Below are positions 7,988-36,637 of a DNA stretch of 57,453 nt, one piece after another. Both the position numbers and the translations under genes were made by a program. The notes under the pieces were generated by a model. That model was not told where the DNA came from, searched no databases, and saw only the letters and a list, made by a program, of their open reading frames with translations. The stretch is from a virus (taxonomy: Duplodnaviria > Caudoviricetes). Position 1 is the first letter of the stretch; the number at the start of each line of letters is the position of its first letter. The DNA lies in IMG/VR virus record IMGVR_UViG_3300043409_000487, positions 1 through 57,453 of that record; one strand, written 5' to 3'.

Positions 7988-8279
7988 TGTCTTCAATTTT
8001 TGAGTTTTGACTCAACTTTTCTAACAGAAGACAACAAGGTAAGTCACTCCAAACCCTCTAGCCCAGAGGGTTTGCACAAATCTGTCTTCACTAACTTCAC
8101 TAACTCAACCAAAATAAAATTGCTAGGTAAAACAGGAAAAGACTCAAAATAGGCTTCTAGACTATATCTCTCTCTCTTAATGAAGAGAGATAAGTATTTA
8201 AGTCAGCCCTGTAGAGACAACACTTTGCGGTGTCTTACCCTGTTGTCTTTTGTCTAAAGAATTGAGTCAGTGAAGACAG
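7988..8279. repeat. 292-bp palindromic intergenic element, copy 1
   Basis: Block-wise identical to 36346..36637. Inverted arms 8024-8046 / 8231-8253; internal hairpins. Confidence 0.9.
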
Positions 8280-8344
8280 CCAAATCAAGGACAACAAAGA
8301 ACCTCCTTTGGGCAATAATACAAACCAGAAAAGGAGTCCTAAGA

Positions 8345-9853
8345 ATGTACACCCCAAAACACAAGCCATTCCAACACCAAGCTGAACTCTTCGAGAAGAC
8401 CAAAGACCTCAAGTCCTTTGCCTTCTTCTGGGAACAAGGCACTGGTAAGTCCAAAGAGATTATTGACACGGCTGGGTATCTGTTCACCACGGACAAAATA
8501 GATGCACTGTTTGTGGTTGCACCCAACGGGGTTCACCGTAATTGGGTTGTGAACGAATGCCCAACTCACCTACCAGATTCAGTGCTGAAACAAACATACA
8601 TGCACTTTTACCAAGGTCAGAAGGCTCACACCAAGGGACACAAGACTGCCCTGCAGCAAGTACTGAAGCACAAAGGCTTTGCGGTGCTCACTATGTCGTA
8701 CAACAGTTTTATGACAGAGGCTGGCAAGAAGGTTGCAAAGGATTTTTTGTCGAAGCGTTCAGCACTGTATGTGCTGGATGAATCGTCAGCAATTAAAAAC
8801 CCAACTGCCAAGCGTACCAAAACGATTCTTGCTTCATCTTCGTATGGGGCGTACCGCAGAGTGCTTGACGGAACACCAGTTAGCAACAGCCCATTCGACA
8901 TTTACACGCAGCTGCAATTCCTGGAAAAAGACTTTTGGGTGAACCACAAGTTCAGCAGCTTCACTGTGTTCAAGCACCATTTTGGTATTTGGAAAAACGG
9001 GTTCAATTCACAAAGTGGCAGAGACTTTGAGTTCGTCGTTGGGTATCACCACTTACCAGAGTTGCACGAAATTGTAGACACCATATCTTCACGTGTGTTG
9101 AAGGAAGATGTGCTCGATTTACCACCGAAGTTGTACCAGAAGCGTTACTTCGATATGAACCCTGCCCAGCAGAAGGCATACGCAGAACTTCGTGACGAAG
9201 CCATCACGTTCCTTTCTGGGCTCAACGAGGAAGATCTAGAGGGCTTACCAGACGAAGATGCTGTGGAGTTGTTTGAGCAAAGTATGTCAAACGTGGTAGA
9301 GGCTCCTCTGGCAATTGTAAGACTGCTTCGACTGCAGCAAGTAACCTCTGGTTACGTACCCAACACAGAAGGTGAATTCTGGGAATTCGAAGGTGTAAAC
9401 GCCAGACTTGCTACGTTGGCTGAGGTTTGTGAGCAAACTGTAGGCAAGGGCATTATCTGGGCTAAATTCACCCGTGACATAGACCTGATAATGAAACTGC
9501 TTGGCGACACTGCCGTTCGATATGATGGACAAGTCACAGATGAAGAACGTGGTGAGTCCATCGAGAAGTTCCAAAGTGGCACTGCGAAGTGGTTCGTTGC
9601 GAACCCTGCTGTTGGTGCTACTGGGCTCACTCTCACTGCTGCCACAACAGTTGTCTTCTACAACAACACATTTAAGTTGTCACAGCGGTTACAGGCAGAA
9701 GACCGTGCACACCGTATTGGTCAAGAGCACCCAGTAAACTATGTGGACATAATTGCTGCAGAGACCATCGACGAGAAGATTGTACAGGCGTTGGTGAATA
9801 AGATGAACATTGCGTCACAGGTAACTGGTGATGTACTAAAGGAGTGGTTATGA
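8345..9853 (+). CDS. SNF2-family (SF2) DNA helicase
   Basis: EQGTGKS, LDES, GTP and QAEDRAHRIGQ motifs; AGAAAAGGAG RBS. Confidence 0.9.
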   Translation: MYTPKHKPFQHQAELFEKTKDLKSFAFFWEQGTGKSKEIIDTAGYLFTTDKIDALFVVAPNGVHRNWVVNECPTHLPDSVLKQTYMHFYQGQKAHTKGHKTALQQVLKHKGFAVLTMSYNSFMTEAGKKVAKDFLSKRSALYVLDESSAIKNPTAKRTKTILASSSYGAYRRVLDGTPVSNSPFDIYTQLQFLEKDFWVNHKFSSFTVFKHHFGIWKNGFNSQSGRDFEFVVGYHHLPELHEIVDTISSRVLKEDVLDLPPKLYQKRYFDMNPAQQKAYAELRDEAITFLSGLNEEDLEGLPDEDAVELFEQSMSNVVEAPLAIVRLLRLQQVTSGYVPNTEGEFWEFEGVNARLATLAEVCEQTVGKGIIWAKFTRDIDLIMKLLGDTAVRYDGQVTDEERGESIEKFQSGTAKWFVANPAVGATGLTLTAATTVVFYNNTFKLSQRLQAEDRAHRIGQEHPVNYVDIIAAETIDEKIVQALVNKMNIASQVTGDVLKEWL

Positions 9854-10185
9854 CAGTCTATGCTATCCAGAACCAACAACGTTGGGACGAGAAGTCACAA
9901 TCATTGGTTCCTAAATTCAATATTGATGCAGCCTATGAGTATGGCGAAGTAAAGTTCTTACTAAGCCCAAGTGCGTCGCCATTCAAAAGCGAATCAATTA
10001 TCCAGCAACTACGCACTGAGTTGGCTTCGTTTACGGATGATGACCACCTATTGCTTGTTGGCAACCCGTGCTTCATCGGTTGGGCTACTGCTATTGCTGC
10101 AGAGTTCAGTGGTGGAGAAGTGAATTTACTTCAGTGGTCTGGCAAAGACCAGAAGTACATACCCGTCAGAAGTAAACTATTCTGA
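9850..10185 (+). CDS. Hypothetical protein
   Basis: AGGAG RBS, coupled ORF. Confidence 0.65.
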   Translation: MTVYAIQNQQRWDEKSQSLVPKFNIDAAYEYGEVKFLLSPSASPFKSESIIQQLRTELASFTDDDHLLLVGNPCFIGWATAIAAEFSGGEVNLLQWSGKDQKYIPVRSKLF

Positions 10186-10240
10186 CAATAATTGGCAAAG
10201 TATGCCGTAACATTCAACTTGTAAAGAAAAGGAGCATTAT

Positions 10241-10783
10241 ATGCAACCCACACCAAACTACGACTACGGTGACACCGCTGCCAGCACTGACATATTGGCA
10301 CGTCTTGCCACACTGGCAGGTGAGCAACGTAAAGCAGAGATTGCTGTCTTGGAGGCTGAAGAAGCCTTGTCAAAAGCAAAGAAACACCTTGCGGACGTTA
10401 GCGAACGACAAATCCCTGAATTGATGGATGAGGCAGGTGTCGCAGAGTTCACCACTGCCGACGGACTCAAGATTCAAGTGCTGGAGAAAATACGTGCCAG
10501 TATCCCAAAGACCGCACAAGGGGCAGCGTTCGCATGGCTAAGAGAACATGGTCACGAATCACTTATCAAGAACATCGTTGAAGTCAAATTTTCAGCTGGT
10601 GAAGATGAAAAGGCTGAAGAAATTCTGCACCTACTGCAAGAGCATGGTACAGAACCTTCTGCCGAAAAATCAGTACACGCAAGCACACTTGCAGCCTTCA
10701 TCAAAGAGCAATTGACAGCTGGTGTTGAAGTTCCGTTGGAACTGTTTGGTGCATTCCGTCAGCGTTACGCTAAGATTAAGTAA
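10241..10783 (+). CDS. Conserved replication-module protein (coiled-coil N-terminus)
   Basis: Strong RBS; AFAWLREHG and VHASTL motifs seen in siphophage replication clusters. Confidence 0.65.
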   Translation: MQPTPNYDYGDTAASTDILARLATLAGEQRKAEIAVLEAEEALSKAKKHLADVSERQIPELMDEAGVAEFTTADGLKIQVLEKIRASIPKTAQGAAFAWLREHGHESLIKNIVEVKFSAGEDEKAEEILHLLQEHGTEPSAEKSVHASTLAAFIKEQLTAGVEVPLELFGAFRQRYAKIK

Positions 10784-10888
10784 AGAATACCGCCACATGG
10801 TTGGTTGTGGGCGTGGTCTGGCAGGACTAAATTCCATCGGCTACGGGAATTAAAAGTGCGTACCCATTTAAATGTAAAGGAGTCAGAA

Positions 10889-11707
10889 ATGACAAAGGCA
10901 AATGAAGTAGCAGAATTGAAGTCTAACTTACCAGTTGTTGCACATGACTACGGTGTCGATGCTGGGGCAGGCTTTGAAAACCAAACCTCTGAAGACTATG
11001 CAATTCCGTTTATCGGTGTGTTGCAAGCGTTGTCACCGCAAGTTGGTGACCCTTCTGATGGTGGTATTGAAGGTGCTAAGCAGGGTATGTTATTCAACAC
11101 TGTGACGAACGAACTGTTCGAAGCCAAATCAGGCTTGGGCTTCGTGCCAGCAACAACAACACATGTGTACGTCGAGTGGGTTCCACGTGACTCAGGTGGT
11201 GGTTTTGTTGGGGTTCATCAACTGGACAGTCAAGTTGTGCGTGATGCAAAATCAAACTCTGCATCATTTAATGGCTTGAAGACATCAACTGGCAATGACT
11301 TGGTAGAAACATTCTACGTGTATGGTGTCTTGCTGGATGAAGAAGGTGACCCTAGTGGTATGGGCGTGATTGCGTTCACGTCGAGCAAAATCAAGGTTTA
11401 CAAAAACTGGAACACCAAGGTGAAGATGTTTACCATCAAAACACCAGACGGTCGTAAAGTAAACCCACCGTTGTTTGCGCACCAAGTTCGTCTGACATCC
11501 ACAAAAGAAAAGTCAGCAAAAGGCGACTACCACAACTTTGCTATGTCCCCACTCAACGGGACTATTGCTGAGTCTTTATTGCCTCCTGACAGCCCAGTTC
11601 TGGCAGCTGCTAAGCAGTGTAAAGAAATGGTTGAAGGTGGTGTTGCACGTGCTTCGTATGAAACACAGGACGGTGGTGCTAAGTCTGACGTTGATGCTCC
11701 GTTCTAA
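10889..11707 (+). CDS. Putative ssDNA-binding protein
   Basis: IPFIGVLQALSPQ motif, acidic SSB-like tail SDVDAPF, replication context. Confidence 0.6.
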   Translation: MTKANEVAELKSNLPVVAHDYGVDAGAGFENQTSEDYAIPFIGVLQALSPQVGDPSDGGIEGAKQGMLFNTVTNELFEAKSGLGFVPATTTHVYVEWVPRDSGGGFVGVHQLDSQVVRDAKSNSASFNGLKTSTGNDLVETFYVYGVLLDEEGDPSGMGVIAFTSSKIKVYKNWNTKVKMFTIKTPDGRKVNPPLFAHQVRLTSTKEKSAKGDYHNFAMSPLNGTIAESLLPPDSPVLAAAKQCKEMVEGGVARASYETQDGGAKSDVDAPF

Positions 11708-11789: not shown

Positions 11790-11867
11790 ACGGCATTAGT
11801 TCAGTTGGATAGAACAGCAGTCTTCTACACTGCGTTGTCGGGGGTTCGAGTCCCTCATGCCGTGCCA
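11790..11867 (+). tRNA. tRNA-Arg (UCU)
   Basis: Acceptor ACGGCAT/ATGCCGT, G73 and encoded CCA. D-arm GTTC-AGTTGGATA-GAAC with A20. Anticodon stem GCAGT/ACTGC, loop CT-TCT-AC. T-loop TTCGAGT. Confidence 0.9.
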
Positions 11868-11998: not shown

Positions 11999-12026
11999 GC
12001 TTTACAATTCAGAAAAGGAGAATCAT

Positions 12027-13238: not shown

Positions 13239-13246
13239 GAGTTAAC

Positions 13247-15043
13247 ATGACAACACTATCCCGTGAGCGTGACCAATTGCTCACTGACTTTGGAAAAGCA
13301 ACACTCAATGACCGCTACTTACTTCCAGGAGAATCCTACCAAGAAGCCTTTGCCCGTGTGGCTTCAGCCTACGCAGAAGACGAAGCCCACGCCCAACGAA
13401 TGTATGACAACATCAGTAAGTTGTGGTTCATCCCAGCGACACCTGTTATGTCCAACGGTGGAACAGACCGTGGGTTGCCAATTAGCTGTTACCTAAACAA
13501 CGTCGATGACAGTATGCAGTCAATCAGCGACAAGTGGACAGAGAATGTTTGGCTGGGTGCTGGTGGTGGTGGCATAGGTACATGCTGGTCAGACGTTCGT
13601 AGTATCGGTGAACCAGTCAAAGGTCGTGGGGGTTCTAGTGGAATTATCCCGTTCATTCGTATTTTAGATTCACAGGTGTTAGCAGTAAGTCAAGGTTCAT
13701 TAAGACGTGGTGCTGCAGCTGTGTACTTAGATGTGTCACACCCTGAAATTGAAGAATTCTTGGAAATTCGCAAACCCTCAGGTGACTTCAATCGCAAATC
13801 TCTGAACCTGCACCACGGAATCGTCTTGACAGATGCATTCATGGAAGCGGTTCGGGACAATCTGTCATGGGAACTTGTAGACCCACATTCGAATCAGGTG
13901 AAGAAGACTGTAAGCGCACGCAACATTTGGCAAAAGATTTTGGAAATACGTCTTCAAACTGGCGAGCCTTATTTATTATTCAAAGACAATGCCACCCGTG
14001 GTATGGCAGAGCACCAACGCCAGCTTGGCATGGAAGTTAAGCAATCAAACCTGTGCTGTGAGATTATGTTGCACACTGGCTTAGACCAACACGGCAAGGA
14101 CAGAACTGCGGTGTGCTGCTTGGGTTCTGTAAACCTAGAAAAGTGGTACGAGTGGAAGGATGACCCACAGTTCATCCAAGATTGCCTACTGTTCTTGGAC
14201 AATGTGTTGCAAGACTACATCGACCGCACCGAAGGTATGCAGGGGTTCGAGGCTGCACGCTATGCTGCATCACAGGAGCGTTCCGTTGGGCTTGGGGTCA
14301 TGGGCTTACATTCGTTATTCCAGCAGCGCAATATTCCTTTCGACTGTGCCATTGCCAAGAGCATGAACATGTCAATCTTCAAAAAGTTACGTGAAGACTG
14401 TGATGCTGCCAATGAGGCAATTGGAACACTGAAGGGTGCTTGTCCAGACGCTGCTCAGGTTGGCAAGAACTTAAGATTCAGTCATTGCATGGCGATTGCA
14501 CCAACTGCATCAATCAGTATTATTGGTGGTGGTGCTTCCCCGTGTGTTGAACCTTGGAACACGAACATCTTCACGCAGAAGACTCTTAGCGGTTCGTTCG
14601 AAGTGCGCAACAAGTACCTTGAGCAATTGCTTGAATCAGTTGGGGAAAACACAGAGAGCGTGTGGGATTCAATCCTAGAGGAACATGGTTCAGTACAGCA
14701 CCTGCCGTTCTTAACCCAAGAGCAAAAGGATGTTTTCAAGACTGCTTGGGAGATTGACCAACGCTGGGTGGTTGACTTCGCTGCAGACCGCACCCCACAT
14801 ATCGACCAAGGACAATCAATCAACCTGTTCCTGAAAGGTAACGTGGACAAGTGGGACTTGCACATGCTGCACTACACAGCGTGGAAGTCTGGGGTGAAGA
14901 GTTTGTACTACCTACGCAGCATGTCAACACAACGTGCTGGCTTTGTTGGTGGTGTGGAAAAAGATAACACAATTGAACGGGAACAGGTATTGGCACATGC
15001 TACTGGACGTTCGGACTATGAGGAGTGCTTAGCATGTCAGTAA
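13247..15043 (+). CDS. nrdA: Ribonucleotide reductase class Ia alpha subunit
   Basis: ATPVMSN, PISCY, QSNLCCEI, APTAS, KSLYY and C-terminal CLACQ; no ATP cone. Confidence 0.95.
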   Translation: MTTLSRERDQLLTDFGKATLNDRYLLPGESYQEAFARVASAYAEDEAHAQRMYDNISKLWFIPATPVMSNGGTDRGLPISCYLNNVDDSMQSISDKWTENVWLGAGGGGIGTCWSDVRSIGEPVKGRGGSSGIIPFIRILDSQVLAVSQGSLRRGAAAVYLDVSHPEIEEFLEIRKPSGDFNRKSLNLHHGIVLTDAFMEAVRDNLSWELVDPHSNQVKKTVSARNIWQKILEIRLQTGEPYLLFKDNATRGMAEHQRQLGMEVKQSNLCCEIMLHTGLDQHGKDRTAVCCLGSVNLEKWYEWKDDPQFIQDCLLFLDNVLQDYIDRTEGMQGFEAARYAASQERSVGLGVMGLHSLFQQRNIPFDCAIAKSMNMSIFKKLREDCDAANEAIGTLKGACPDAAQVGKNLRFSHCMAIAPTASISIIGGGASPCVEPWNTNIFTQKTLSGSFEVRNKYLEQLLESVGENTESVWDSILEEHGSVQHLPFLTQEQKDVFKTAWEIDQRWVVDFAADRTPHIDQGQSINLFLKGNVDKWDLHMLHYTAWKSGVKSLYYLRSMSTQRAGFVGGVEKDNTIEREQVLAHATGRSDYEECLACQ

Positions 15044-16023
15044 TACAACTAAAACAACAATCCGTTGGATACAAGCCGTTCCGTTACCCTTGGGCTTACC
15101 AGTTTTGGAAAGCCCAGCAGCAAGTCCACTGGCTGCCAGAAGAAGTGCCGTTGTCAGAAGACGTTCGTGATTGGGCGACAAGACTGTCAGACAACGAACG
15201 TGAACTGCTGACACAGATTTTCAGGTTCTTTACCCAGTCAGATATCGACGTGAATGACAACTACATGGAGAAGTACACGCAGGTATTCAAGCCCACAGAA
15301 ATTCGCATGATGTTGTCAGCGTTTTCAAACATGGAAACGATTCATGTTGACGCATATTCACTGCTGGTGGAAACTGTGGGCATGCCAGACGCTGAGTACA
15401 AGGCTTTCATGGACTATCAGGCAATGCGGGACAAGCACGACTTCTTAGGTCAGTTCAATGTCGACTCTGACAGAGACATCTTGAAGACTATGGCAGTGTT
15501 TGGTGCATTTACTGAAGGGCTTCAGTTGTTTGCTTCGTTCGCTATGTTGCTGAACTTCCCACGCTTCGGCAAGATGAAGGGTATGGGGCAGATAGTTACT
15601 TGGTCGGTGCGTGACGAGACTCTCCACTGTGAAGGTATTATCAAGTTATTCCACGAGTTTGCTGCTGAAACTGGTGCGCTGGACGAAGAACTGAAGCAAG
15701 AAATTCGCCAGATTGCACAACACGTGGTAGAACTAGAGGATAAGTTCATTGACCTAGCATTCGGTGTTGGTGGTATTGAAGGCATGACACCTGAAGACAT
15801 CAAGGCTTATATACGGTATGTTTGTGACTGGAGACTTAGTCAGTTGAAGCTGGAACCAGTGTTCGGCATAGATGTGCACCCACTGCCGTGGCTGAAGTCA
15901 CTGCTCAACGGTATTGAGCATGCTAACTTCTTCGAGACACGTTCTACGGAGTACAGCAAGGGTGCTACAAGCAGCACTTGGGAGGACACTTGGAATCATT
16001 TTGATTCTGTTGTGGTAAAGTAA
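15034..16023 (+). CDS. nrdB: Ribonucleotide reductase beta subunit
   Basis: HWLPEE, ETIH, EGLQLF, RDETLH and NFFETR..EY motifs. Confidence 0.95.
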   Translation: MSVIQLKQQSVGYKPFRYPWAYQFWKAQQQVHWLPEEVPLSEDVRDWATRLSDNERELLTQIFRFFTQSDIDVNDNYMEKYTQVFKPTEIRMMLSAFSNMETIHVDAYSLLVETVGMPDAEYKAFMDYQAMRDKHDFLGQFNVDSDRDILKTMAVFGAFTEGLQLFASFAMLLNFPRFGKMKGMGQIVTWSVRDETLHCEGIIKLFHEFAAETGALDEELKQEIRQIAQHVVELEDKFIDLAFGVGGIEGMTPEDIKAYIRYVCDWRLSQLKLEPVFGIDVHPLPWLKSLLNGIEHANFFETRSTEYSKGATSSTWEDTWNHFDSVVVK

Positions 16024-16079
16024 GATAGTTGGCAAAAGGCAACAAACTAAAATAATTTACAAAAGTATTGTTTTAGTTG

Positions 16080-16108
16080 TTGTCTTTTGTCGTTGTTGGA
16101 GGCATAAT
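16080..16108 (+). promoter_or_regulatory. Sigma70-type promoter driving the DNA-modification operon
   Basis: TTGTCT-N17-CATAAT, a downstream hairpin and an AGAAAAGGAG RBS. Same family as the sites at 29120, 31622 and 34536. Overlaps a long imperfect hairpin at 16031-16091. Confidence 0.7.
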
Positions 16109-16158
16109 GATGTCATGGTCGTGAATGTCATGACCCAACCCAGAAAAGGAGAATCAGT

Positions 16159-16683
16159 ATGTTTACTTTATCACAAATCACCGCCCTCACTTCTTCAGAA
16201 GAAACCAAAACAGCTGAGATGTTGTCTGTGTACAACGAACTCGCAACTGCGTTGGGCTTGAAGTCAGTTAATAAATTCGCAGACCGCAAAACAGCAGTTC
16301 GTCGCTTGAATGAAATTGTCACCCAAGCAAATGAAGCTGGCATTTTAGAATCAGAAAAGCCAACCAAAGTAACAAAGGTCAAAGAACCAAAAGAACGCAA
16401 ATCAATTGCTGTGAACTATCTTGGTATGCGTGCTGACCTTTACCCAAATGGCGTTCAACAAGTCCCAACACGTGGTGCAACTTGGCTGAAATGCTTTGAG
16501 TTGTTGCGTGCTGGTGCCACTGAAGAGCAGTTGCTTGGCGTGTGGGAAGGCAATCCAAAGGCTAAGACTAATGCTTACGAAATGACACGTATTTTCTGCA
16601 CTCGCTTCGGCTGGGGCACTCGTTCGGAAGACGGGAAAATCTTCTTAATAACTCTCGAAGAGAAACGCAATGCAAGCAAATAA
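16159..16683 (+). CDS. Basic hypothetical protein, possible DNA-binding
   Basis: KFADRKTAVRRL motif, Lys-rich linker; first gene of the modification operon. Confidence 0.6.
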   Translation: MFTLSQITALTSSEETKTAEMLSVYNELATALGLKSVNKFADRKTAVRRLNEIVTQANEAGILESEKPTKVTKVKEPKERKSIAVNYLGMRADLYPNGVQQVPTRGATWLKCFELLRAGATEEQLLGVWEGNPKAKTNAYEMTRIFCTRFGWGTRSEDGKIFLITLEEKRNASK

Positions 16684-25345: not shown

Positions 25346-25676
25346 GAATCCAGCCTATCCTGGAACACCTGATGTGAACTACATTGGTGGTTGGGTAGAA
25401 CTGAAATACATGAGAGTTTGGACACACGGTGCTGGTGTTGTTAAGATACACCACTTCACACCACAACAACGGGCTTGGTTACACAGACGTTGGCGTAAGG
25501 GTGGTGCTGCGTGGTTGCTTCTGAAGGTTGGTACGCAATGGTTACTGTTTGATGGTGCAACAGCAGCGACAAAGGTCGGTAAGACCACGAGATTGGAATT
25601 AGAACGGTTAGCCAAACACACCAAGTTTGGACAACCCACAAGCGAGGAGTTAGAACAATGGTTATTGAGGAATTAG
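25278..25676 (+). CDS. VRR-NUC / PD-(D/E)XK nuclease, putative Holliday-junction resolvase
   Basis: GTPD...WVELK...QQRAW motifs. Confidence 0.75.
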   Translation: MSEKLMRNKVVQLLKRLDAVAVENPAYPGTPDVNYIGGWVELKYMRVWTHGAGVVKIHHFTPQQRAWLHRRWRKGGAAWLLLKVGTQWLLFDGATAATKVGKTTRLELERLAKHTKFGQPTSEELEQWLLRN

Positions 25677-26044
25677 AACTGACAGCAGGTGAGCGATTGT
25701 TCACGATGCGTCGTCGATTAAAATTACGGCAGAAATACTTAGCTGAATCCCTTGGGCTTACATACCACGAATACTCAAGTATGGAACACGATAAACGTCC
25801 TGTTGTGGGTGACGAAACTCTGCTAAACTTGGAAGAATTCCGTGAATTCAGAACAACCCAACGCACCATGAAAGAACTGGTGTTGGAAGAGTACGAGAAG
25901 TTAGTCATCCTGCGTAGACGTACTGGTGTTAAGCAAGTAGAAATTGCCCATGAGCTGAAACTCTCCAGAACTTGGCTTAACCGCATTGAGCGTGGTTTGG
26001 TGGATTGTTCACCCTTGCGGTGGTTCTGGGAGAACCGTGCATGA
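25658..26044 (+). CDS. Tandem XRE-type HTH protein
   Basis: Two HTH repeats: RRRLKLRQKYLAESLGL..YSSME and RRRTGVKQVEIAHELKLSRTWLNRIERG. Confidence 0.8.
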   Translation: MVIEELELTAGERLFTMRRRLKLRQKYLAESLGLTYHEYSSMEHDKRPVVGDETLLNLEEFREFRTTQRTMKELVLEEYEKLVILRRRTGVKQVEIAHELKLSRTWLNRIERGLVDCSPLRWFWENRA

Positions 26045-28422
26045 TACAGGACGCAATTGATTTTCTGAAAAAGTACGCACCAGAGGGTGCTTGGGTTCTG
26101 ACTTCAATTGACCCCAACAAACGTGGTATCCAAACTCGCACATTTTACCCTTCAGACGAACCTGTGCTGTTGGACTGGCTTGCCCAGAATAATGGTGAAC
26201 GTAACATATACTTCCACGTCAACAAAACAATCCGTGACCTTCAGAAAAAGGCAGAACGTGAAGACATTGAGAACATGGGTTGGCTGCATGTGGACATTGA
26301 CCCCAAGGCTGGGGAAGATATTGTGCAGGAACAAGAACGTGCCTTAGCACTGCTCAAAAACCCTCCTGGAAATGTCCCTGCCCCAACTGTTATTGTATTC
26401 TCTGGGGGTGGGTATCAAGGCTTCTGGAAGTTACGTGAACCAGTCCAAATCAACGGTGACTTGGGTAAGGCTGAAGATGCAAAACGCTACAACATGCAAT
26501 TAGAAGTGCTGTTTGGTGCGGACAATTGTCATAACATTGACCGTATCATGCGTCTTCCAGGAACGATGAACGTACCAGACGCACGCAAGCGCAAGAAGGG
26601 GCGTGTTGCTGTAGAAGCCAAGTTGGTGGAGTTCAATAGTGACCTTGTCTATGACATAACACAATTCACCCCTGCCCAAGCGGTACAACTTGCTTCTGAC
26701 TCTGGGTTTGGTGGTTCGAGTACTGTCAAGATTAGCGGTAACATCAAGCGTTTAGATTCGGTTGAAGAACTGGATTGTCCAGACCGAATCAAGGTCATTA
26801 TTGTGCAGGGCAGACACCCAGACGAAGGTGCAAAGGCTGGTGACGATTCACGCAGTGCGTGGCTGTTTGATGCAATCTGTGGCATGGTTCGAGCAGACGT
26901 ACCAGACGATGTTATCTTCTCAGTTGTGACAGACCCTGACTTTCGTATATCAGATTCAGTGTTGGACAAAGGCACAGCAGCAGAACGCTATGCACTAAGA
27001 CAGATTGAACGTGCCAAAGAAGAATCAATTGACCCGAACCTGCGAATACTGAACGAAAAGCACGCAGTCATCAGCAATATGGGTGGGCGTTGTAGGGTGG
27101 TTGAGGAGGTTATGGACTTTGCTCTCAACCGCACACGAATCACCAAGCAATCATTCGAGGACTTCCGCAACCGATACATGCACAAGTCTGTGCAAATAGG
27201 CACTGATTCAAAGGGCAACCCACAATTCATGCAGATGGGTAAGTGGTGGTTGCAGCACCCAAACCGAAAGCAATACGACACCATTGTCTTTGCTCCTGGA
27301 AAGGAAGTTCCTTCAGCCTTCAACCTTTGGAAAGGCTTCGCAGTAGAAGCACGTCCAGGAAATTTGCACCAAAAATACCTGAAACATATTCTTGACAACG
27401 TGTGTTCTGGTGACCAGTCCCATTTTGACTACACAATTGGCTGGATGGCTTCTGCGGTGCAAAAGCCCGATTCTCCAGGACAGACCGCAATTGTCCTGCG
27501 TGGGCGTCAGGGGACAGGTAAGTCGTTCTTCATTAAGATGTTTGGTCGTTTGTTTGGACGCCACTATATGCAAGTGTCAGACCCCAAACACTTGGTTGGC
27601 TCATTTAACAGCCATTTGCGTGACTGTGTGGTGCTGTTCGGTGACGAGGCTTTTTATGCTGGCGACAAGAAACACGAATCAGTGCTCAAAACACTAATCA
27701 CAGAAGAGACAATTACCATTGAAGCAAAGGGTGTTGATGCAGAGGCAGCAATGAACTGTACCCACGTGCTGTTGGCTTCGAACAATAGTTGGGTTGTCCC
27801 TGCTGGAGTTGATGAACGTCGCTACTTTGTGCTGGACGTTGGTGACCACCAGATGCAAAACTCAGGCTACTTCGAAGAGATTGCAAAGGAGTTGGAGAAT
27901 GGTGGGTTGGGCAATCTGTTGTTTTACCTGACACAGTATGACCTCAGTAAATTCAACGTGCGTAACGTGCCAAAGACGGCTGCACTACGTGAACAGAAAT
28001 TGTACACGCTGTCACCCGAAGAAGAATGGTGGTACAACAAACTGCAGGAAGGCAGACTCAACCAAGAATCAGAGGTTTGGGAGTCTGACATTCAAAAGGA
28101 CACACTATTCCTAGACTATGTGGAGCACCAGAAGTTGGTCGGTATCTTCCGCAGGGCAACCCCAACCACCTTGGGCAAATTCTTAGCCAAGGTTTGTCCA
28201 GAGGGCTATCCGAAGTCCCTCCAAAAACTAATCACCGTTAAGATACCAGACGGTCAGGGGTGGAGTAAGGAAGTTAAACGCAGACCGTATTTTTACCAGT
28301 TCCCAGACCTTGAGACGTTAAGAAGCCACTGGGACACACACTTCCAAACTGGCGAGGCGTGGCAGCAAGTAAGTCAAGAACCAGTACACCAACAGACAAT
28401 ACACCAAGGAGAACCATTCTAA
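26041..28422 (+). CDS. Primase-helicase (RepB'-like primase domain plus SF3-like NTPase)
   Basis: HVDID, SGGGYQ.FW, RIMRLPGT.N, GRQGTGKS, DEA and RRY motifs. Confidence 0.85.
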   Translation: MIQDAIDFLKKYAPEGAWVLTSIDPNKRGIQTRTFYPSDEPVLLDWLAQNNGERNIYFHVNKTIRDLQKKAEREDIENMGWLHVDIDPKAGEDIVQEQERALALLKNPPGNVPAPTVIVFSGGGYQGFWKLREPVQINGDLGKAEDAKRYNMQLEVLFGADNCHNIDRIMRLPGTMNVPDARKRKKGRVAVEAKLVEFNSDLVYDITQFTPAQAVQLASDSGFGGSSTVKISGNIKRLDSVEELDCPDRIKVIIVQGRHPDEGAKAGDDSRSAWLFDAICGMVRADVPDDVIFSVVTDPDFRISDSVLDKGTAAERYALRQIERAKEESIDPNLRILNEKHAVISNMGGRCRVVEEVMDFALNRTRITKQSFEDFRNRYMHKSVQIGTDSKGNPQFMQMGKWWLQHPNRKQYDTIVFAPGKEVPSAFNLWKGFAVEARPGNLHQKYLKHILDNVCSGDQSHFDYTIGWMASAVQKPDSPGQTAIVLRGRQGTGKSFFIKMFGRLFGRHYMQVSDPKHLVGSFNSHLRDCVVLFGDEAFYAGDKKHESVLKTLITEETITIEAKGVDAEAAMNCTHVLLASNNSWVVPAGVDERRYFVLDVGDHQMQNSGYFEEIAKELENGGLGNLLFYLTQYDLSKFNVRNVPKTAALREQKLYTLSPEEEWWYNKLQEGRLNQESEVWESDIQKDTLFLDYVEHQKLVGIFRRATPTTLGKFLAKVCPEGYPKSLQKLITVKIPDGQGWSKEVKRRPYFYQFPDLETLRSHWDTHFQTGEAWQQVSQEPVHQQTIHQGEPF

Positions 28423-29084
28423 TGACTATTCCAGCAACCCCATCCAACGCTCAACTTTGGTTCCACTGTGCAGGTTCTCTGACACTCCTAGAAGCCCAAA
28501 CGAACAAACGGAAGGCAAACCTCGGAACAGTGACCCATTCGCTTGCGGAGGTGTGTTACAAAGACGGTGCTGACCCATTTAAGTTGGCTGAATATGCAAA
28601 GTTCTATGTGGATTACATGCGTACCACTTTCAAAGACTGTGACGTTCGTTTAGAGCAGGAGTTTGACGTCAGTGACTGGATGTTGTCGCCAGATAAAACA
28701 CATGCGGCTAGACCAGACGCTGTCGTGTTCGGTAAGGAAGATGGTTGGGTTTACGTCACAGACCTGAAGACGGGACATGAAGCAGTTTATGCTACCAATA
28801 ATCCACAACTACGGTTGAGCGCACTTGGTGTTTGGGCTTCTGTTTATCGTGATGAGGAGACCTTTGGTAAGATTAAGGGCTTCGTATTGCAGATTATCCA
28901 ACCACCACACAAAGCAGTGGATGAAGAACGATTGACAGTAGAGGAGTTACTGGGTTGGGGTCAACTTGCCAAAGAACGCTACAAACTTATCCCTACAGAG
29001 CAGTTCTCTCCAGGATACTATTGTGGTAGGTGTTACGCTGCAAACCGTTGTCCTAACAAGCGTATAGAGGAAGCGTTGTTTTAG
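28422..29084 (+). CDS. Cas4-like / DUF2800 PD-(D/E)XK exonuclease
   Basis: N-terminal Cys, GT..H, PD..DLKTG, NPQL and C-terminal CxxCx5C. Confidence 0.75.
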   Translation: MTIPATPSNAQLWFHCAGSLTLLEAQTNKRKANLGTVTHSLAEVCYKDGADPFKLAEYAKFYVDYMRTTFKDCDVRLEQEFDVSDWMLSPDKTHAARPDAVVFGKEDGWVYVTDLKTGHEAVYATNNPQLRLSALGVWASVYRDEETFGKIKGFVLQIIQPPHKAVDEERLTVEELLGWGQLAKERYKLIPTEQFSPGYYCGRCYAANRCPNKRIEEALF

Positions 29085-29108: not shown

Positions 29109-29189
29109 CAAAATAGTTGTTGTCTTTTGTCGTTACAGAAGACAAGATTCACTTACGGTTTGTGTGAACCGCAATTTAGAAAAGGAGCA
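29109..29189 (+). promoter_or_regulatory. 81-bp promoter-hairpin-RBS cassette, copy 1
   Basis: Identical to 34525..34605 except for one base. TTGTCT-N17-CAAGAT and AGAAAAGGAG. Confidence 0.85.
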
Positions 29190-30963: not shown

Positions 30964-31613
30964 ATGTAAACACCCTTAAACTTGTCGGTGAGTTCCAACA
31001 AGCGTTTGACCCAGCCAATGTTGGGCATGAACAACCAATCAAGCTGCCAGAAAGTATGCCAGACTTGGCTGTTTTGGCTACCAAGATGACAGAACTCGGT
31101 GAGGAACTACACGAGTTTGCCAGAATTAAAAAGGAAGCAGGAGAAACTCTCGAATCCACCTTGGGCTTAAGACTACAACTCTGCCAAGAAGAACTAGCTG
31201 AATTGGCAACTGCCATGTCCAGTGGTGACCAACTCGAATGTTTGGATGCACTGACTGATATGCAGTACGTGCTGGATGGAACGTACCACACCTTGGGCTT
31301 GGCTCACTTAAAAGGAGAGGCGTTCTTGGAAGTACAACGCAGCAATATGTCTAAACTGGGTGAAGACGGCAAACCAATTCGGAACGAAGCAGGTCGTGTT
31401 GTCAAGGGTGCAAACTACTCCCCACCAGACATAGAAAAAATCCTATCAAGTGGTGGTAAACCAAAGCAGGTGCAGCAAATCAGCAAATCCCACTTCTACC
31501 ATATGCAGTGTTCCAGCTGTAAGCAATGGTGGGCGGTTGAAGACCCCAACCACAACAAGTCAGAATACTACTGTCCACATTGTGGTGCAGAAAATAAAGT
31601 TGAGACAGCATAA
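30960..31613 (+). CDS. MazG-like all-alpha NTP pyrophosphohydrolase with C-terminal Zn ribbon
   Basis: EELAEL..DALTDMQYV, EVQRSNMSK and G..VKG.NY.PPD motifs; C-terminal CxxC...CPHC. Confidence 0.8.
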   Translation: MNVNTLKLVGEFQQAFDPANVGHEQPIKLPESMPDLAVLATKMTELGEELHEFARIKKEAGETLESTLGLRLQLCQEELAELATAMSSGDQLECLDALTDMQYVLDGTYHTLGLAHLKGEAFLEVQRSNMSKLGEDGKPIRNEAGRVVKGANYSPPDIEKILSSGGKPKQVQQISKSHFYHMQCSSCKQWWAVEDPNHNKSEYYCPHCGAENKVETA

Positions 31614-31621
31614 AATACTTG

Positions 31622-31697
31622 TTGTCTTTTGTCGAAGTTAGACTATAATGATATTCATGGTCAATGGTGACCATGAAACTGAACCCAGAAAAGGAGT
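31622..31697 (+). promoter_or_regulatory. Promoter-hairpin-RBS cassette (variant)
   Basis: TTGTCT-N16-TATAAT, perfect hairpin TTCATGGTCA/TGACCATGAA and AACCCAGAAAAGGAG, as at 16080. Confidence 0.75.
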
Positions 31698-32701: not shown

Positions 32702-33015
32702 TGAACTTAGAACAATACTTGGCAACTCAGGGAATTTTCAACATCGTTGACAAGGGTGGTGTCATTTGTGGGCTGAACGACTACCTCACCACCCGTGCGA
32801 TTGTCGTTGGGCTTGGTGAACTTGGGTATGAACTGCGGTACTGTTACCCAACAAGGCAAGAAGCAGACGCTGCATTAGAACAGTGGGACGGTATTGGACA
32901 TCCTCCTGGAAATTGGGTAAAGGCAAAAGGTATTTATCAAGGAGAACCTGTAGACATGTTGAACCCTGAATACTTGGATTCAGTAGAACGCCCAAAGTCT
33001 TCTGGCAGGACTTAA
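32701..33015 (+). CDS. Hypothetical protein
   Basis: TGATG coupling; RYCY..A..AL..WDG.G.PPG.W motif. Confidence 0.7.
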   Translation: MNLEQYLATQGIFNIVDKGGVICGLNDYLTTRAIVVGLGELGYELRYCYPTRQEADAALEQWDGIGHPPGNWVKAKGIYQGEPVDMLNPEYLDSVERPKSSGRT

Positions 33016-33084
33016 AACTGCCACCAATCAATTTATGGAACGCACCTTTGATGTGGTTCCGAAACAGAGAAAAGGAGTAACAGC

Positions 33085-34311
33085 ATGCGTCATGTAGTAT
33101 TTAAGAATAGTGGTGTTCTAGACCCACGTTCAATCATTACCTTTGGTGTGTCAGCCAAGGCAGGTAAGTCCCCAATCGGTTACTTTGGTACTGGACTAAA
33201 GTATGCAATCGCTGTGTTGATTCGCAATGGTATTGACATCTCAGTGTTCTCTGGGGAACGACTTTACACCTTTGGTAAGGCAGAAGTCACTATCCGTGGC
33301 ACTGGGTTCAGCTTGCTGAAGATGTGTACGCATGACCTTGCTGGCGAGCTACTGTCAGAGCAGGAACTTGGCTTCACCACTGAGTTGGGTAAGAACTGGA
33401 CTGTGCGACAGGCGTTCCGTGAACTGTATTCCAATATGCTGGACGAAAGTGGCACTTGTGAACTTATGGGTGATGAACAGTTGGTAGACATACACCTTGA
33501 AGAAAACACGACAATTGTTGTCAGCGGTCAGCCATTCATTGACGTGTTCTACACCAAAGGTGAAACATTCTTGCAGACCCCAGCCAAACTTGAGTATGAG
33601 CGCATGGAAGTTCACTCTGGGGAACCAACTTGGGCGTATTACCGTGGGGTGCGAGTACATGAACTGCAAAAGCCCACTCGATTTACGTACAATTTAGTTG
33701 GTGCAGTAGAATTGACAGAGGACAGAACGCTAAAGTACTCCTTTTACTTCACGGACTGGCTTAAATACACAATCAGCCAAGCAACTGATGAAGAATTCAT
33801 TGAACAAGTCCTTATCTGTGGAGAAAACTACACAGAACATACGCTGGACTTCTCCTCAGTGGATGAAGAACCAAGTGAAGCGTACATGACAGTGCTATCA
33901 CGCTATGTGGATGACCGAAGCAGTCGCATAAACCATTCAATGATTACTTACTACAAGCGGTTCTCAGCTAAAACTGGTACTGTAAAGCAGGTTGAGCTGA
34001 CACCAGTAGAATTACAGCAGTTGGACAAGGCGAGAAAGTTTGTGGAGAACGTCCTTGGGATGAAGACAGACACATACCCAATATACGTTGTGGACTTCCT
34101 CGGTGACGACGTTCTAGGGCTTGCAGAGAACGGCTGCTGCTTTATCTCCAGACGTGTGTTCAGGCAAGGCACGAAACAGGTTGCTGCAACCCTGTATGAA
34201 GAGTTCTTACACCTTTCTGAGCACCTACAAGACTGTACTTATGGTATGCAGAACTATCTATTCGATGTCATTTGTTCGTTGGGCGAACAAATTCAAGGAG
34301 AACCGTTATGA
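33085..34311 (+). CDS. GHKL-ATPase-like protein with C-terminal zincin-like motif
   Basis: FGVSAK..IGYFGTGLKYA and RELYSN.LDE motifs; C-terminal LYEEFLH. Confidence 0.65.
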   Translation: MRHVVFKNSGVLDPRSIITFGVSAKAGKSPIGYFGTGLKYAIAVLIRNGIDISVFSGERLYTFGKAEVTIRGTGFSLLKMCTHDLAGELLSEQELGFTTELGKNWTVRQAFRELYSNMLDESGTCELMGDEQLVDIHLEENTTIVVSGQPFIDVFYTKGETFLQTPAKLEYERMEVHSGEPTWAYYRGVRVHELQKPTRFTYNLVGAVELTEDRTLKYSFYFTDWLKYTISQATDEEFIEQVLICGENYTEHTLDFSSVDEEPSEAYMTVLSRYVDDRSSRINHSMITYYKRFSAKTGTVKQVELTPVELQQLDKARKFVENVLGMKTDTYPIYVVDFLGDDVLGLAENGCCFISRRVFRQGTKQVAATLYEEFLHLSEHLQDCTYGMQNYLFDVICSLGEQIQGEPL

Positions 34312-34532
34312 GTAACACACCAACAAAAACTTACCTCCGTCCATGGTTCATCCTCCTTGTAGACCTCTTTGTTCTTTGGGTTATGGTTCGAGAAGGCTTC
34401 TTCAACGGCAATCCTTGGGTGTTCTTGTTGTTACTACTGTTGTTCCTAGGCACATTCTTTGCTGGTATTGCCTCTGGTATTGGTTGGGTTGGCAGTAAGC
34501 TGATTGAAACAATTGACAAATATTCAAAATAG
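34308..34532 (+). CDS. Small two-TM membrane protein
   Basis: Two hydrophobic segments; AAGGAG RBS. Confidence 0.6.
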   Translation: MSNTPTKTYLRPWFILLVDLFVLWVMVREGFFNGNPWVFLLLLLLFLGTFFAGIASGIGWVGSKLIETIDKYSK

Positions 34533-34605
34533 TTGTTGTCTTTTGTCGTTACAGAAGACAAGATTCACTTACGGTTTATGTGAACCGCAATTTAGAAAAG
34601 GAGCA
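34525..34605 (+). promoter_or_regulatory. 81-bp promoter-hairpin-RBS cassette, copy 2
   Basis: Direct repeat of 29109..29189. Confidence 0.85.
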
Positions 34606-34609
34606 TAAA

Positions 34610-34948
34610 ATGCTATCAGATATTCTTCGCAAACTCGCTGACGAACTTGAAGAACAGGAAAAGCCTGAACTTGGTACAGCGGTTGCTAAACTTGACAACA
34701 TCATCCCAATGTTCTACATCAAAGGCGTGGATGACGAAGGTGACCGCTTCAAGTGTCAAGTGCCTGCAGACACAGACCTCGAAGAAATTGAAGTCTTCAA
34801 CAACTTGATAGAACAAGGGTGCAGCGATATTACTGCGAAGGCAATTGCAGAATGTTGGGGCAAACACATTGTCATGATTCGCAAGGCAAAGGAAGCAGCA
34901 ATGGCAATGCACGCTTCTGAACGCCCAATCAGCAGCACTAAACACTAA
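34610..34948 (+). CDS. Hypothetical early protein
   Basis: Directly behind the cassette RBS. Confidence 0.7.
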   Translation: MLSDILRKLADELEEQEKPELGTAVAKLDNIIPMFYIKGVDDEGDRFKCQVPADTDLEEIEVFNNLIEQGCSDITAKAIAECWGKHIVMIRKAKEAAMAMHASERPISSTKH

Positions 34949-34995
34949 CCACTGAACACCCTCTGGGCTTCTGTTCAGAGGGTTGGAGAATCAAA

Positions 34996-35417
34996 ATGGG
35001 ATACGTATTATTGTTCGCAGCAACTGCACTTGTCATCTTCGGTATTTATAGACTTTTCACTAAACGTCCTGTAGTCGTGGAAGAACTTCGTTTGAAGAAC
35101 CCCCATTAGAAAAGTGGGAAGACTTGTACCCAATAGAACCTAAGGCGGTTCAGCATAAACCTGTGGTTGAAAAGCCCAAGCGGTATGACACACCACGTTC
35201 TTCAACGACATCTCATAGTTCAAGCAGCACCAGTAGCGATTCAATGCAGGACTTAGCTGTGCTGGCACTGATGACACAGCAGCCAATGGACTCTACGACT
35301 GAACGACTATTGGATAGGACAGAACCAACACCGACTTACTCTGGTGGGGGTGGTGAAGCAGGAGGGAGAAGGCTGCGTGAGCAAGAAAATACCCCACACC
35401 CACCACACACCGATTAA
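34996..35417 (+). pseudogene. Apparently frameshifted membrane-anchored Ser/Gly-rich protein (34996..35109 plus -1 frame to 35417)
   Basis: A TM ORF with GGAG RBS stops just after a C5 run (35100-35104). The -1 frame continues as a low-complexity SSSS...YSGGGG tail. Confidence 0.45.
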
Positions 35418-35886
35418 CAGACAAACAGCAATTGTAATGAATCAAAGTGGGTGTGAAGATAACATACTGGAAGACCAACAGACACAATTACTGCTGTTGC
35501 GCAGAAACCTAAAACTAGAGGCTGACAAACTTCAATCAGAAGTTATGGAACTAAACAATAGGTTGAAGCAAATAAAGCAGAAGTATGTTGGCAGAAGACC
35601 AGAACACACCAGAGGTAACTACCACACCAAAGTTGTACCATTGGAAAACAGAAGAAGGGAACTTGGGCTCAGGTTGCAGGAAATACACAAGAAGCTGAGA
35701 CAACTCCCAACTGAAACTGGCGGTAAGTGGGACAGGGTTCTTTTGGAAGAATTCATGGAAGTTGCACGGATGTCCTTGGCTCCTGAAGAATATCAAAAGT
35801 GGCTGGACATCAGCAACAAGAGAACTTTGGAACGTATGCGTAAATTACTTGACGAAGTAGGAGAATCAAATGAAAGTCGAACTTAA
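35377..35886 (+). CDS. Coiled-coil hypothetical protein
   Basis: GGAGG RBS before GTG; heptad-rich. Confidence 0.6.
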   Translation: MSKKIPHTHHTPINRQTAIVMNQSGCEDNILEDQQTQLLLLRRNLKLEADKLQSEVMELNNRLKQIKQKYVGRRPEHTRGNYHTKVVPLENRRRELGLRLQEIHKKLRQLPTETGGKWDRVLLEEFMEVARMSLAPEEYQKWLDISNKRTLERMRKLLDEVGESNESRT

Positions 35887-36199
35887 AGAATACCTGATGG
35901 TTCTTGCTGGAATAAACCCCAGCCTGACAATCTGCGAAACCTCATTCAAACAGATGTGCGAAGTTGAGGCACGTGCTGGCTGTGCACAAACTTCAATTAG
36001 TGTTCGTGCGGACTACGTAGAAAAGTTCAAGAAATTCGTTGAACAAACTGGACTTACCGCTGCGGAGTATAGATTCTTTGGTAACATCACATTTATTGTT
36101 GCTTGGGGGAAACTTCGTGACCCGTTGATGCACCCTGTCGCAAAATACAGACTGGGTTTTGACGGGAAGTTCACGTTGGTTCCACGACAAAATACCTAA
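35870..36199 (+). CDS. Hypothetical protein
   Basis: AGGAG RBS. Confidence 0.65.
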   Translation: MKVELKEYLMVLAGINPSLTICETSFKQMCEVEARAGCAQTSISVRADYVEKFKKFVEQTGLTAAEYRFFGNITFIVAWGKLRDPLMHPVAKYRLGFDGKFTLVPRQNT

Positions 36200-36218
36200 A
36201 ACAATCATTTTCTTACAC

Positions 36219-36250
36219 ACGGCTCTCAATCTGGGAGCCGTATTCATTTG
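36219..36250 (+). terminator. Probable intrinsic terminator ending the early region
   Basis: ACGGCTC...GAGCCGT hairpin followed by T-rich sequence. Confidence 0.5.
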
Positions 36251-36345
36251 TGGTTTGCGTTGGACTTTTGTTGTGAATCTTGTCTTTTGGTTGTTCTGCC
36301 ACGTGAAAATAGCCCAAAACGGGGCAAAATCTGACTCAATTTATC

Positions 36346-36637
36346 TGTCTTCAATTTTTGAGTTTTGACTCAGTTTTTCTAACAGAAGACAACAAGGTAA
36401 GACAGCTAAAACGCTGTGCCCGACAGGGTTTACGTCAATCTGTCTTCACTAACTTCACTAACTCAGCCAAAATAAAATTGCTAGGCAGAGAGCAAAAACA
36501 GCGAAAAACGGCTCCTAGTCTATATCTCTCTCTCTTAATGAAGAGAGATAAGTATTTAAGTCAAGCCTTTTGAGTACAGGGTTTGCGGTGTCTTACCTTG
36601 TTGTCTTCTGTCTAAAGAATTGAGTCAGTGAAGACAG
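36346..36637. repeat. 292-bp palindromic intergenic element, copy 2
   Basis: Perfect 23-bp inverted arms 36382-36404 / 36589-36611; homologous to 7988..8279. Confidence 0.9.

Follow-up and report, generated by a model that had tools for sequence, protein, structure and literature searches.

Twin Elements as Putative Transcription-Control Hubs

A pair of 292-nt non-coding elements, each heading one of the two gene modules of a siphophage, was characterized in the IMG/VR record IMGVR_UViG_3300043409_000487, which was analyzed over its whole length (57,453 bases) and is referred to here as the window. Copy 1 lies between the endolysin gene (7385−7984) and an SNF2 helicase gene (8345−9853), in front of the replication/nucleotide module, and copy 2 lies between the last early open reading frame (ORF) and terS (36796−37332), in front of the packaging/morphogenesis/lysis module, as claimed in an earlier note made from the letters of this DNA. 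The best explanation for the pair, held tentatively and with somewhat less than even confidence, is that the elements are cis-acting transcription-control hubs by which both modules, of about 28 kb each, would be switched together. The arms that bracket each element were found to carry the phage's own promoter box, a feature that the earlier note had missed and that moves the weight towards transcription control. Twin non-coding elements at the same two borders (lysis/SNF2 helicase and last early gene/terS) were also found in the relatives Ab18, PaMx11, Lucjan, Epa5 and YuA, and in YuA both places carry annotated promoters. The coordinates of all features are collected in Table 1.

The two copies are ungapped direct repeats with 28,358 bases between them, identical at 247 of 292 positions and differing by 45 substitutions and no indels. 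A third copy was absent from the whole record, the core-profile search likewise returning only two. The equal lengths, same-length spacers and conserved blocks described earlier were all recovered: the 45 differences are clustered, the variance of the identical-run lengths being matched in 2 of 20,000 random placements and the five identical runs of at least 25 nt in none of 20,000. The claim that the copies stand half a circle apart holds approximately, the record itself being classed as linear with an estimated completeness of 91%. Both elements are non-coding, with stop codons in all six frames, and each forms a large imperfect palindrome whose overall arms measure 74 nt (77% complementary). 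The inner arms of copy 2 are 23 nt long and, as had been stated, perfect (ACAGAAGACAACAAGGTAAGACA and its complement, around a 184-nt loop), and those of copy 1 are 24 nt long with three mismatches. The alternative pairing of the right end with a middle block was also found again, over 20 nt at 95% in copy 2 and over 15 nt in copy 1. The compensatory change proposed for hairpin 1 stood for one pair (C-G to G-C), and a G-G mismatch is also present in the same hairpin of copy 2. The 3′ half of this hairpin, ACAGGGyTTGC, is kept in Abidjanvirus and Epaquintavirus, and the common CT/AG hairpin that the earlier note had described was located in both copies, where together with the AGTATTTAAGTCA box it forms the best-conserved block over five aligned phages. 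An A/T-rich stretch, AAAATAAAATT, also belongs to the core.

Arms, Promoter Box and Core Promoter-Like Site

All four arms of the two copies follow a constant plan, in which the box (TTGTTGTCTTYTGT) is followed after 9 nt by TGAGTCA, and the arm boxes within each element are about 207 bp, or roughly 20 helical turns, apart. Nine occurrences of the box GTTGTCTTYTGT were found in the window: four on the arms, four at plus-strand intergenic sites and one inside the start of terS. The intergenic boxes (16079, 29119, 31621 and 34535) lie 76−84 nt upstream of start codons. Two of them, at 16079 and 31621, are followed at promoter spacing by a −10 hexamer (CATAAT or TATAAT, within CATAATGATG or TATAATGATA), and CAAGAT comes next at 29119 and 34535. 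The operator-like sites on the four arms are thus common to four dispersed promoter-like sites of the same genome. Between the arms, a sigma-70-like site, TTCACT-17-CAAAAT, was located at 8087−8115 and 36445−36473, in the same alignment column of both copies, with 8 of 12 consensus matches and pointing into the module.

The four dispersed boxes were observed to belong to cassettes (16074−16158, 29105−29189, 31616−31703 and 34521−34605) in which the phage-specific box and a −10 are combined with a stem-loop and a Shine-Dalgarno site (AAGGAG). Two of these cassettes, upstream of unrelated small ORFs, are 98% identical over 85 nt. They resemble the T4-type promoter-early stem-loop (PeSL) cassettes, and homologous ones occur in Ab18 and PaMx11.

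A box of this kind was also found in the relatives, each with a sequence of its own. In Ab18 and PaMx11, CTTGCYTTTT is present both within the twin elements and at scattered intergenic positions, the latter with (C/G)A(G/T)AAT −10 hexamers. The dispersed intergenic promoters of Abidjanvirus read GCTTGCCTT(T/G)TGC, 12−13 nt, (C/G)A(G/T)AATGA, and each Abidjanvirus twin element has one promoter box, lacking a −10 and followed by CTAAAG as in the phage of the window. The YuA box CTTTACTTCTTCG, annotated as a "sigma70 promoter requiring phage-encoded cofactor", occurs as inverted pairs without a −10 in both twin regions, at 455(−) and 715−726(+) on the helicase side and at 32995(−) and 33251(+) on the terS side. 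Furthermore, promoters of "medium activity (1000 MU), clear -35/-10 consensus sequence" are annotated in the YuA record at 489−568, before the helicase gene gp02, and at 33014−33160, before the terS gene gp50, and each of them sits between the inverted boxes of its twin region. In an ONT-cappable-seq study of YuA, nine promoters with one conserved motif, apparently dependent on a phage factor, and one sigma-70-like promoter, P014, are reported (PMC10914365). Since 11-mer sharing between these GC-rich genomes is mostly noise, only recurrent box matches were kept, and these were re-checked. The arm boxes lack a −10 in all three lineages and therefore look like operators rather than promoters. 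The arm sequence differs among lineages yet equals each phage's own promoter box, which points to a common DNA-binding protein and not to a base-paired stem.

In the proposed mechanism, each element would consist of an asymmetric core, with a host-type sigma-70-like promoter directed into the module, bracketed by two outward-facing operator-like arms. The core promoters would be fired by the host RNA polymerase early in infection, and a phage factor recognizing the box at the four dispersed promoters would also occupy the arms. Once bound, this factor could loop or occlude the core across the distance between the arm boxes, and both modules would then be switched together, presumably from early to middle or late expression. 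The obvious candidate for the factor is the protein with tandem helix-turn-helix (HTH) domains encoded at 25658, since its syntenic counterparts in YuA (gp25) and Ab18 (ORF21) are annotated as "putative repressor"; it may thus be the binder of the promoter boxes.

Table 1. Positions of the twin elements, their parts and associated features in the window, and of the twin pairs in related phages.
Genome	Feature	Position	Strand	Description
Window	Twin element copy 1	7988-8279	+	3 nt past the endolysin stop codon; 65 nt short of the helicase ATG
Window	Left arm, copy 1	8024..8046	-	Box TTGTTGTCTTCTGT, 9 nt, TGAGTCA (to 8008); outward-facing
Window	Hairpin 1, copy 1	8051..8073	.	AAACCCTCT / AGAGGGTTT
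Window	Core block, copy 1	8082..8127	+	CTGTCTTCA unit, two tandem 9-mers (CTAACTTCA), TTCACT-17-CAAAAT, invariant GCTAGG
Window	CT/AG hairpin 2 and AGTATTTAAGTCA box, copy 1	8165..8205	.	Hairpin itself 8165-8192
Window	Right arm, copy 1	8231..8269	+	Box TGTTGTCTTTTGT, 9 nt, TGAGTCA; toward the helicase gene; no -10 at promoter spacing
Window	Dispersed phage-specific promoter (putative)	16074..16112	+	Box TTGTTGTCTTTTGTCG, 10 nt, CATAATGATG, stem-loop, Shine-Dalgarno site; box as on the twin arms
Window	Protein with two XRE-type HTH domains	25658..26044	+	Just upstream of the primase
Window	D5/VapE-type primase-helicase	26005..28422	+	DUF5906, VapE-like domain, PHROG 1829
Window	Promoter cassette, repeat D8	29114..29189	+	98% identical to 34530-34605; box and inverted partner ACAGAAGACAA form a 26-nt palindrome
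Window	Dispersed phage-specific promoter (putative)	31616..31654	+	Box, 9 nt, TATAATGATA
Window	Promoter cassette, repeat D8, second copy	34530..34605	+	
Window	Terminator-like hairpin	36219..36241	+	Ends the early region, upstream of copy 2
Window	Twin element copy 2	36346-36637	+	About 100 nt past the terminator-like hairpin; 158 nt short of the terS ATG
Window	Left arm, copy 2	36382..36404	-	Perfect 23-nt inverted repeat of 36589-36611; box outward
Window	Hairpin 1, copy 2	36409..36431	.	AAACGCTGT / ACAGGGTTT; one compensatory pair, one G-G mismatch
Window	Core block, copy 2	36440..36485	+	Content as in copy 1
Window	CT/AG hairpin 2 and AGTATTTAAGTCA box, copy 2	36523..36563	.	Hairpin itself 36523-36550
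Window	Right arm, copy 2	36589..36627	+	Box, 9 nt, TGAGTCA; toward terS
Ab18	Twin pair	Helicase side 84-388; terS side 31294-31598		86% identical; inverted
PaMx11	Twin pair	Helicase side 28241-28605; terS side 350-715		76% over 370 nt; inverted
Lucjan	Twin pair	Helicase side within 25900-26900; terS side within 57900-59433		77% over 362 nt; inverted
Epa5	Twin pair	Helicase side within 14800-16300; terS side within 48500-49800		79% over 209 nt; inverted
YuA	Twin pair	Helicase side 595-651; terS side 33133-33189		84% over 57 nt (blastn); direct

Twin Pairs in Related Phages

The window was found to be syntenic with the Mesyanzhinovviridae (YuA, Ab18 and PaMx11), and the nearest described phages are Pseudomonas siphophages, with a helicase about 50% and a TerS about 33% identical to those encoded here. 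Gene order is the same in Ab18, PaMx11 and YuA, on a single coding strand. When used as a query, the Ab18 element matched 18 phage records (13 distinct phages), 17 of them in at least two places, the exception being a 32-kb partial record. The twin regions of YuA gave a score of 116 in a wider local alignment, against a shuffled mean of 25. Relatives with one copy or none would speak against the site proposed in the earlier note, and the claim survives, the pair being kept in them. That site, envisaged as a spacing-constrained nucleoprotein site, is supported and extended by the paired copies of the relatives and by an inner-arm loop of similar length that recurs in four copies of three phages around arms of differing sequence. 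This loop measures 182 and 184 nt in the window and 183 and 181 nt, respectively, in the terS-side copies of Ab18 and PaMx11. The pair was not found described as twins in the literature searched, the original YuA paper lying outside that search, and the ZC01 paper lists only three low-GC non-coding regions (PMC5418858). Judged from these comparisons of sequence, the twin element is a conserved site, not described before, with a putative control function.

Homology of the core was evaluated at several levels. By blastn, copy 1 gave no match among 50,697 phage records. By local alignment, both copies matched the terS-side copies of Ab18 and of PaMx11 without inversion (z 5.5−13.8), and the helicase-side copies aligned with both copies of the window only when flipped (z 6.1−11.3), these z-scores being derived from mononucleotide shuffles and not representing probabilities. 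Multiple alignments of 6 copies, and of 10 copies of five phages, revealed a core common to this phage and four relatives that comprises ACAGGGyTTGC, tandem ACTT(C/G)A(C/G) units, an invariant GCTAGG, and the CT/AG hairpin followed by AGTA..TA.AGTC. The same blocks are those identical between the two copies of the window, which suggests that they are under selection. A profile of this core gave no significant match in YuA or in G001, a 62-kb IMG/VR relative. No long twin repeat was detected in G001 by blastn, and the likeness between its two borders was weak and at motif level (z 5.1). On the reverse strand of G001 (L045−L048, about 48190−48700), an extra ORF was observed between the non-coding region and the helicase gene, and its translation, judged by eye, resembles a homing endonuclease of HNH/AP2 type.

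In a tree of the 10 copies, the two copies of this phage paired with each other (100/100), as did those of Epa5 (100/100), and within Abidjanvirus some copies grouped by position instead. The clustering of copies by genome points to sequence exchange within genomes over long times, that is, to concerted evolution. In the terS-side element of Lucjan (L056, 598−826), 50-nt inverted arms were observed whose sequence is unlike that of Ab18 and PaMx11 at this place and whose complementarity is kept, which suggests that the two arms of an element exchange sequence by templating.

The comparative data come from distant relatives only. The terS protein query returned no IMG/VR relative and five homologues, with at most 42% identity, among 5.8 billion proteins, and the helicase query returned five IMG/VR loci, the best at 45%; with homologues so few and so distant, no close relatives were at hand for covariation. 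No RNA run was listed for this phage, and contigs of 4 of the 11 listed sequencing runs (X2, X3, X4 and X6) were aligned around the region of one copy. The X2 contig matched 36264−36414 with no differences and the X3 contig matched 36222−36401 with two, 36415−36691 was uncovered, and no contig joint touched the element. Further to the right, 36757−36918 (the terS upstream region and first terS codons) was observed to be replaced by 161 unlike letters in the X3 contig, which is otherwise 95−99% alike, and the stretch to the right of copy 2 looks like a local swap hotspot.

Possible Replication Origins and Other Explanations

Several observations weigh against the reading of the elements as transcription-control hubs. 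The annotated promoter activity is that of a relative, YuA. The core site TTCACT-17-CAAAAT is weak by consensus and fell under the threshold of the promoter scan, and no promoter-like site was found at the corresponding column in Ab18, PaMx11, Lucjan or Epa5. Each Abidjanvirus element has a single, inward-facing box instead of two outward-facing ones. The homology of the YuA twin regions to the core of this phage was not significant, the best profile match (33028−33081, at the terS promoter) having an E value of 3.7. The helicase copy is flipped in Ab18, PaMx11, Lucjan and Epa5 (Abidjanvirus and Epaquintavirus), an inversion that would put a simple promoter-plus-leader out of action unless the gene had a further promoter. 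Finally, the iteron-like units, the A/T-rich stretch and the hairpins fit a replication origin equally well.

Twin replication origins, or an origin together with a cis replication region, are a serious alternative, although a less likely one. A phage initiator, which would be the primase-helicase or the tandem-HTH protein, would bind the repeated units as iterons, and unwinding would take place at the A/T-rich stretch and the CT/AG hairpin. The second copy could act as a further origin, or it could block forks and so bring about the switch to concatemer synthesis, a role proposed for SPP1 oriR; the internal promoter could activate or prime initiation. Consistent with this, the short units CTGTCTTCA, TGACTCA and TGTCTT were found to be enriched 17- to 60-fold in the elements and in both orientations, with 5 of 7, 5 of 9 and 13 of 65 genome occurrences, respectively, inside them (expected 0.08−0.77). 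Tandem 9-mers, the A/T-rich stretch and conserved hairpins are present in the core, so that the elements combine the clustered short-unit repeats and the A/T-rich unwinding stretch by which iteron origins are recognized. The occurrence of the helicase copy in either orientation, depending on the lineage, also suits an origin better than a promoter-plus-leader, and the phage encodes its own replisome (PolA, the primase-helicase, a Dda-like helicase and the SNF2 helicase). A precedent is provided by SPP1, for which two similarly organized origins and one binding protein are described (PMC6316719; PMC3485210). In contrast, the GC skew is positive throughout the window, with no switch or origin signal, a comparison of low power given that all genes are on one strand. 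The sharing of the arm motif with dispersed promoters points to a transcription factor, and no replication data for members of the family were found in the literature searched. The primase-helicase, a candidate origin binder under this explanation, matched the PDB entries "Primase" 6k9e/6k9c over its helicase region only, and no origin-binding domain was identified in it. The RepB′-like primase of the earlier note, on which its comparison with the hairpin ssi sites of RSF1010 had been built, gave way to a D5/VapE-type enzyme (DUF5906, VapE-like domain), no RepB′ match having appeared.

A combination of both functions is considered distinctly unlikely. The elements would then be bifunctional hubs throughout the family, each an early promoter and a replication origin, and the factor that reads the box would bridge the copies and couple transcription to replication in the manner of ori/crr. 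Gene conversion would keep the copies alike, and the core would flip between the inverted arms, which would explain its opposite orientation in Abidjanvirus and Epaquintavirus.

An action at the RNA level appears improbable. In read-through transcripts, the long imperfect hairpin would terminate, insulate or be processed by RNase III between the modules; in a variant, the sequence that follows the core promoter would form a structured leader common to both elements, such as an antitermination signal. Signals of the latter type are putL/putR of HK022 and nutL/nutR of lambda. As single strands, both copies fold far better than their shuffles (z −7.0 and −8.7, none of 200 shuffles being equally good). 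Copy 1 begins directly behind the endolysin stop codon (3 nt), without a separate terminator, and the elements head two long one-directional operons in which a control of read-through would be useful. Nevertheless, the structured RNA that the earlier note had allowed for found no support. No match was obtained in Rfam 15 at E ≤ 1 for either locus (L001 and L002). The folding energies gave no plus-strand bias, with −94.5 (plus) and −103.7 kcal/mol (minus) for copy 1 and −110.1 and −109.8 kcal/mol for copy 2. When covariation of the conserved hairpin was checked, a two-sided change was found in 1 of 10 pairs, the covariation term was +0.32, and U-G cells (7) and C-A cells (8) were balanced. Moreover, the flipped copies of four relatives would yield the complementary RNA, and the arm sequence tracks each phage's promoter box.

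A recombination or mobile element is regarded as very doubtful. It could take the form of an insertion resembling a miniature inverted-repeat transposable element, of a recombination site that splits the genome, or of an invertible switch whose core flips between the arms. The long terminal inverted repeats would agree with this, as would the opposite helicase-side core of Abidjanvirus and Epaquintavirus relative to this phage and the clustering of copies by genome in the tree, which requires exchange between copies. However, no target-site duplication was found at either copy, and a scan of 40 ORFs yielded no recombinase. The elements keep their places throughout the family although the flanking proteins are only 33−50% identical to those of this phage. 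The division of the genome into two circles, as suggested in the earlier note, is disfavored by the inverted copies of four of the six phages examined, inverted copies being unable to resolve a genome in this way. No contig joined across the copies, a weak point, the contigs covering the region of one copy only. No further copy was found in exact-match scans, which would miss diverged copies. Four blocks served as queries, each in one or two of the three collections. Viral contigs were scanned with two blocks and a gapped arm pattern, genome contigs with two blocks and metagenome contigs with one, and related copies numbered 0 and 0 in viral contigs, 0 in genome contigs and 0 and 0 in metagenome contigs. 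The 33 matches obtained were rejected as unrelated coding sequence. All 32 viral loci with the arm-gap-arm pattern belong to a single protein-coding gene, unrelated to the element, in which the span is always 240 nt, and the one genome match (L036) has only a 20-mer in common, within unrelated GC-rich sequence, and was attributed to chance.

Packaging signals, with a pac site upstream of terS and a second copy at the other border, are the least probable of the explanations weighed. Copy 2 does end 158 nt before terS, and the twin elements resemble P1 and SPP1 pac sites, in which arrays of short repeats flank a central region. The second copy, in turn, fronts the helicase gene and is inverted in four relatives, and two pac sites half a genome apart in opposite orientation would make no packaging sense. 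The dual packaging sites of the earlier note are also disfavored by the relatives: reads of the Ab18 group are reported to align as a circle without abnormal peaks (PMC4482731), and the family is described as circularly permuted with headful packaging (PMC11946847).

Genome Context

All long ORFs, and every gene identified by the family scan, are on the plus strand of the window. The replication/nucleotide module encodes the SNF2 helicase, a Dda-like helicase, ribonucleotide reductase, PolA, dCMP deaminase, the tandem-HTH protein, the D5/VapE-type primase-helicase and an exonuclease, and the packaging/morphogenesis/lysis module runs from TerS, TerL and the portal through to the Amidase_3 endolysin. 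The record is cut within a long, repetitive tail-fiber-like gene (1−1925 and 54641−57453) with periodic repeats of 30 and 51 nt. Positions 249−382 match 57320−57453 at 99%; the contig ends therefore probably overlap, and the record may represent an essentially complete genome, either circular or permuted.

Within the early region, 18715−22461 resembles the thymidine-hypermodification cluster of the YuA/M6 type. It encodes a P-loop kinase (PHROG 800), a phosphatase/HD-like protein and an enzyme resembling thymidylate synthase (PHROG 5131), for which the YuA annotation is putative dUMP hydroxymethyltransferase. Modified thymidine may be present in the DNA of this phage. A tRNA-Arg (TCT) gene was observed among the early genes at 11790−11867, tRNA being the only Rfam match at gathering score in the window. 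The ORF next after the helicase gene (9844−10185) matched the Pfam family "Phage Pam3 gp32-like protein" (E value 3e-32), which is named after a cyanophage. In the structural region, an ORF contains three perfect tandem copies of an 18-nt unit (44661−44719). DNA near-identical to that of the window was found in freshwater and wastewater metagenome runs.

The family includes the well-used Pseudomonas aeruginosa laboratory phages YuA, M6, Ab18 and PaMx11, for which neither a replication origin nor an early-to-late switch was found mapped in the literature searched. A conserved, paired and spacing-constrained element at the module heads offers a concrete place to look for either, and the link between arms and promoter box points to the phage cofactor invoked by the promoter studies of YuA. 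Genome annotation can take the pair as a mark of both module borders in uncultured relatives, and phage engineering should allow for the fact that insertions into these two seemingly "empty" intergenic regions are probably not free of effect. Bifunctional hubs, if true, would constitute a phage cis element of an undescribed kind.

Comparison with Known Systems

The twin regions of the Mesyanzhinovviridae are like the elements of the window in their two positions, in the rule of two copies and in the plan of arms with a promoter box, and the core blocks align with the twin elements of Abidjanvirus and Epaquintavirus. They differ in that the copies are direct here and in YuA and inverted in Abidjanvirus and Epaquintavirus, and in that no similarity was detected by blastn. 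In SPP1, oriL and oriR are described as two similarly organized sites with repeats and an A/T-rich region, far apart and served by one initiator, one of the origins being placed within a long intergenic region among late genes (PMC6316719). SPP1 differs in relying on the host polymerase and on a helicase of DnaB type that has a loader, and its oriL lies inside a gene; the twin elements are origins only putatively. The ori and crr of satellite phage P4 are two iteron clusters bound by the alpha primase-helicase of SF3 type, the second of which is orientation-independent. The names of both sites appear in PMC9942202. The primase of the window is of the D5/VapE type, and the likeness to P4 noted here is one of plan.

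Regulators that act at several sites offer a further comparison. In the early-to-late switch region of phi29, the p4 protein binds several inverted sites around early promoters, and it controls other promoters too, and the OL and OR of lambda are two homologous operator-promoter regions that head two early operons and can loop. In contrast to both, the sites within each element of the window are about 207 bp apart and the elements 28 kb apart, the arms look like promoter boxes stripped of their −10, and the regulator is only a candidate. Lastly, the T4-type PeSL cassettes are promoter-early stem-loop units, and MotA-box middle promoters double as origins. The repeated promoter/stem-loop/Shine-Dalgarno cassettes at 16074, 29114, 31616 and 34530, in which the box replaces a consensus −35, are similar to these. 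The twin elements have five times the length of such cassettes and, unlike them, lie between inverted boxes and keep to the heads of the modules.

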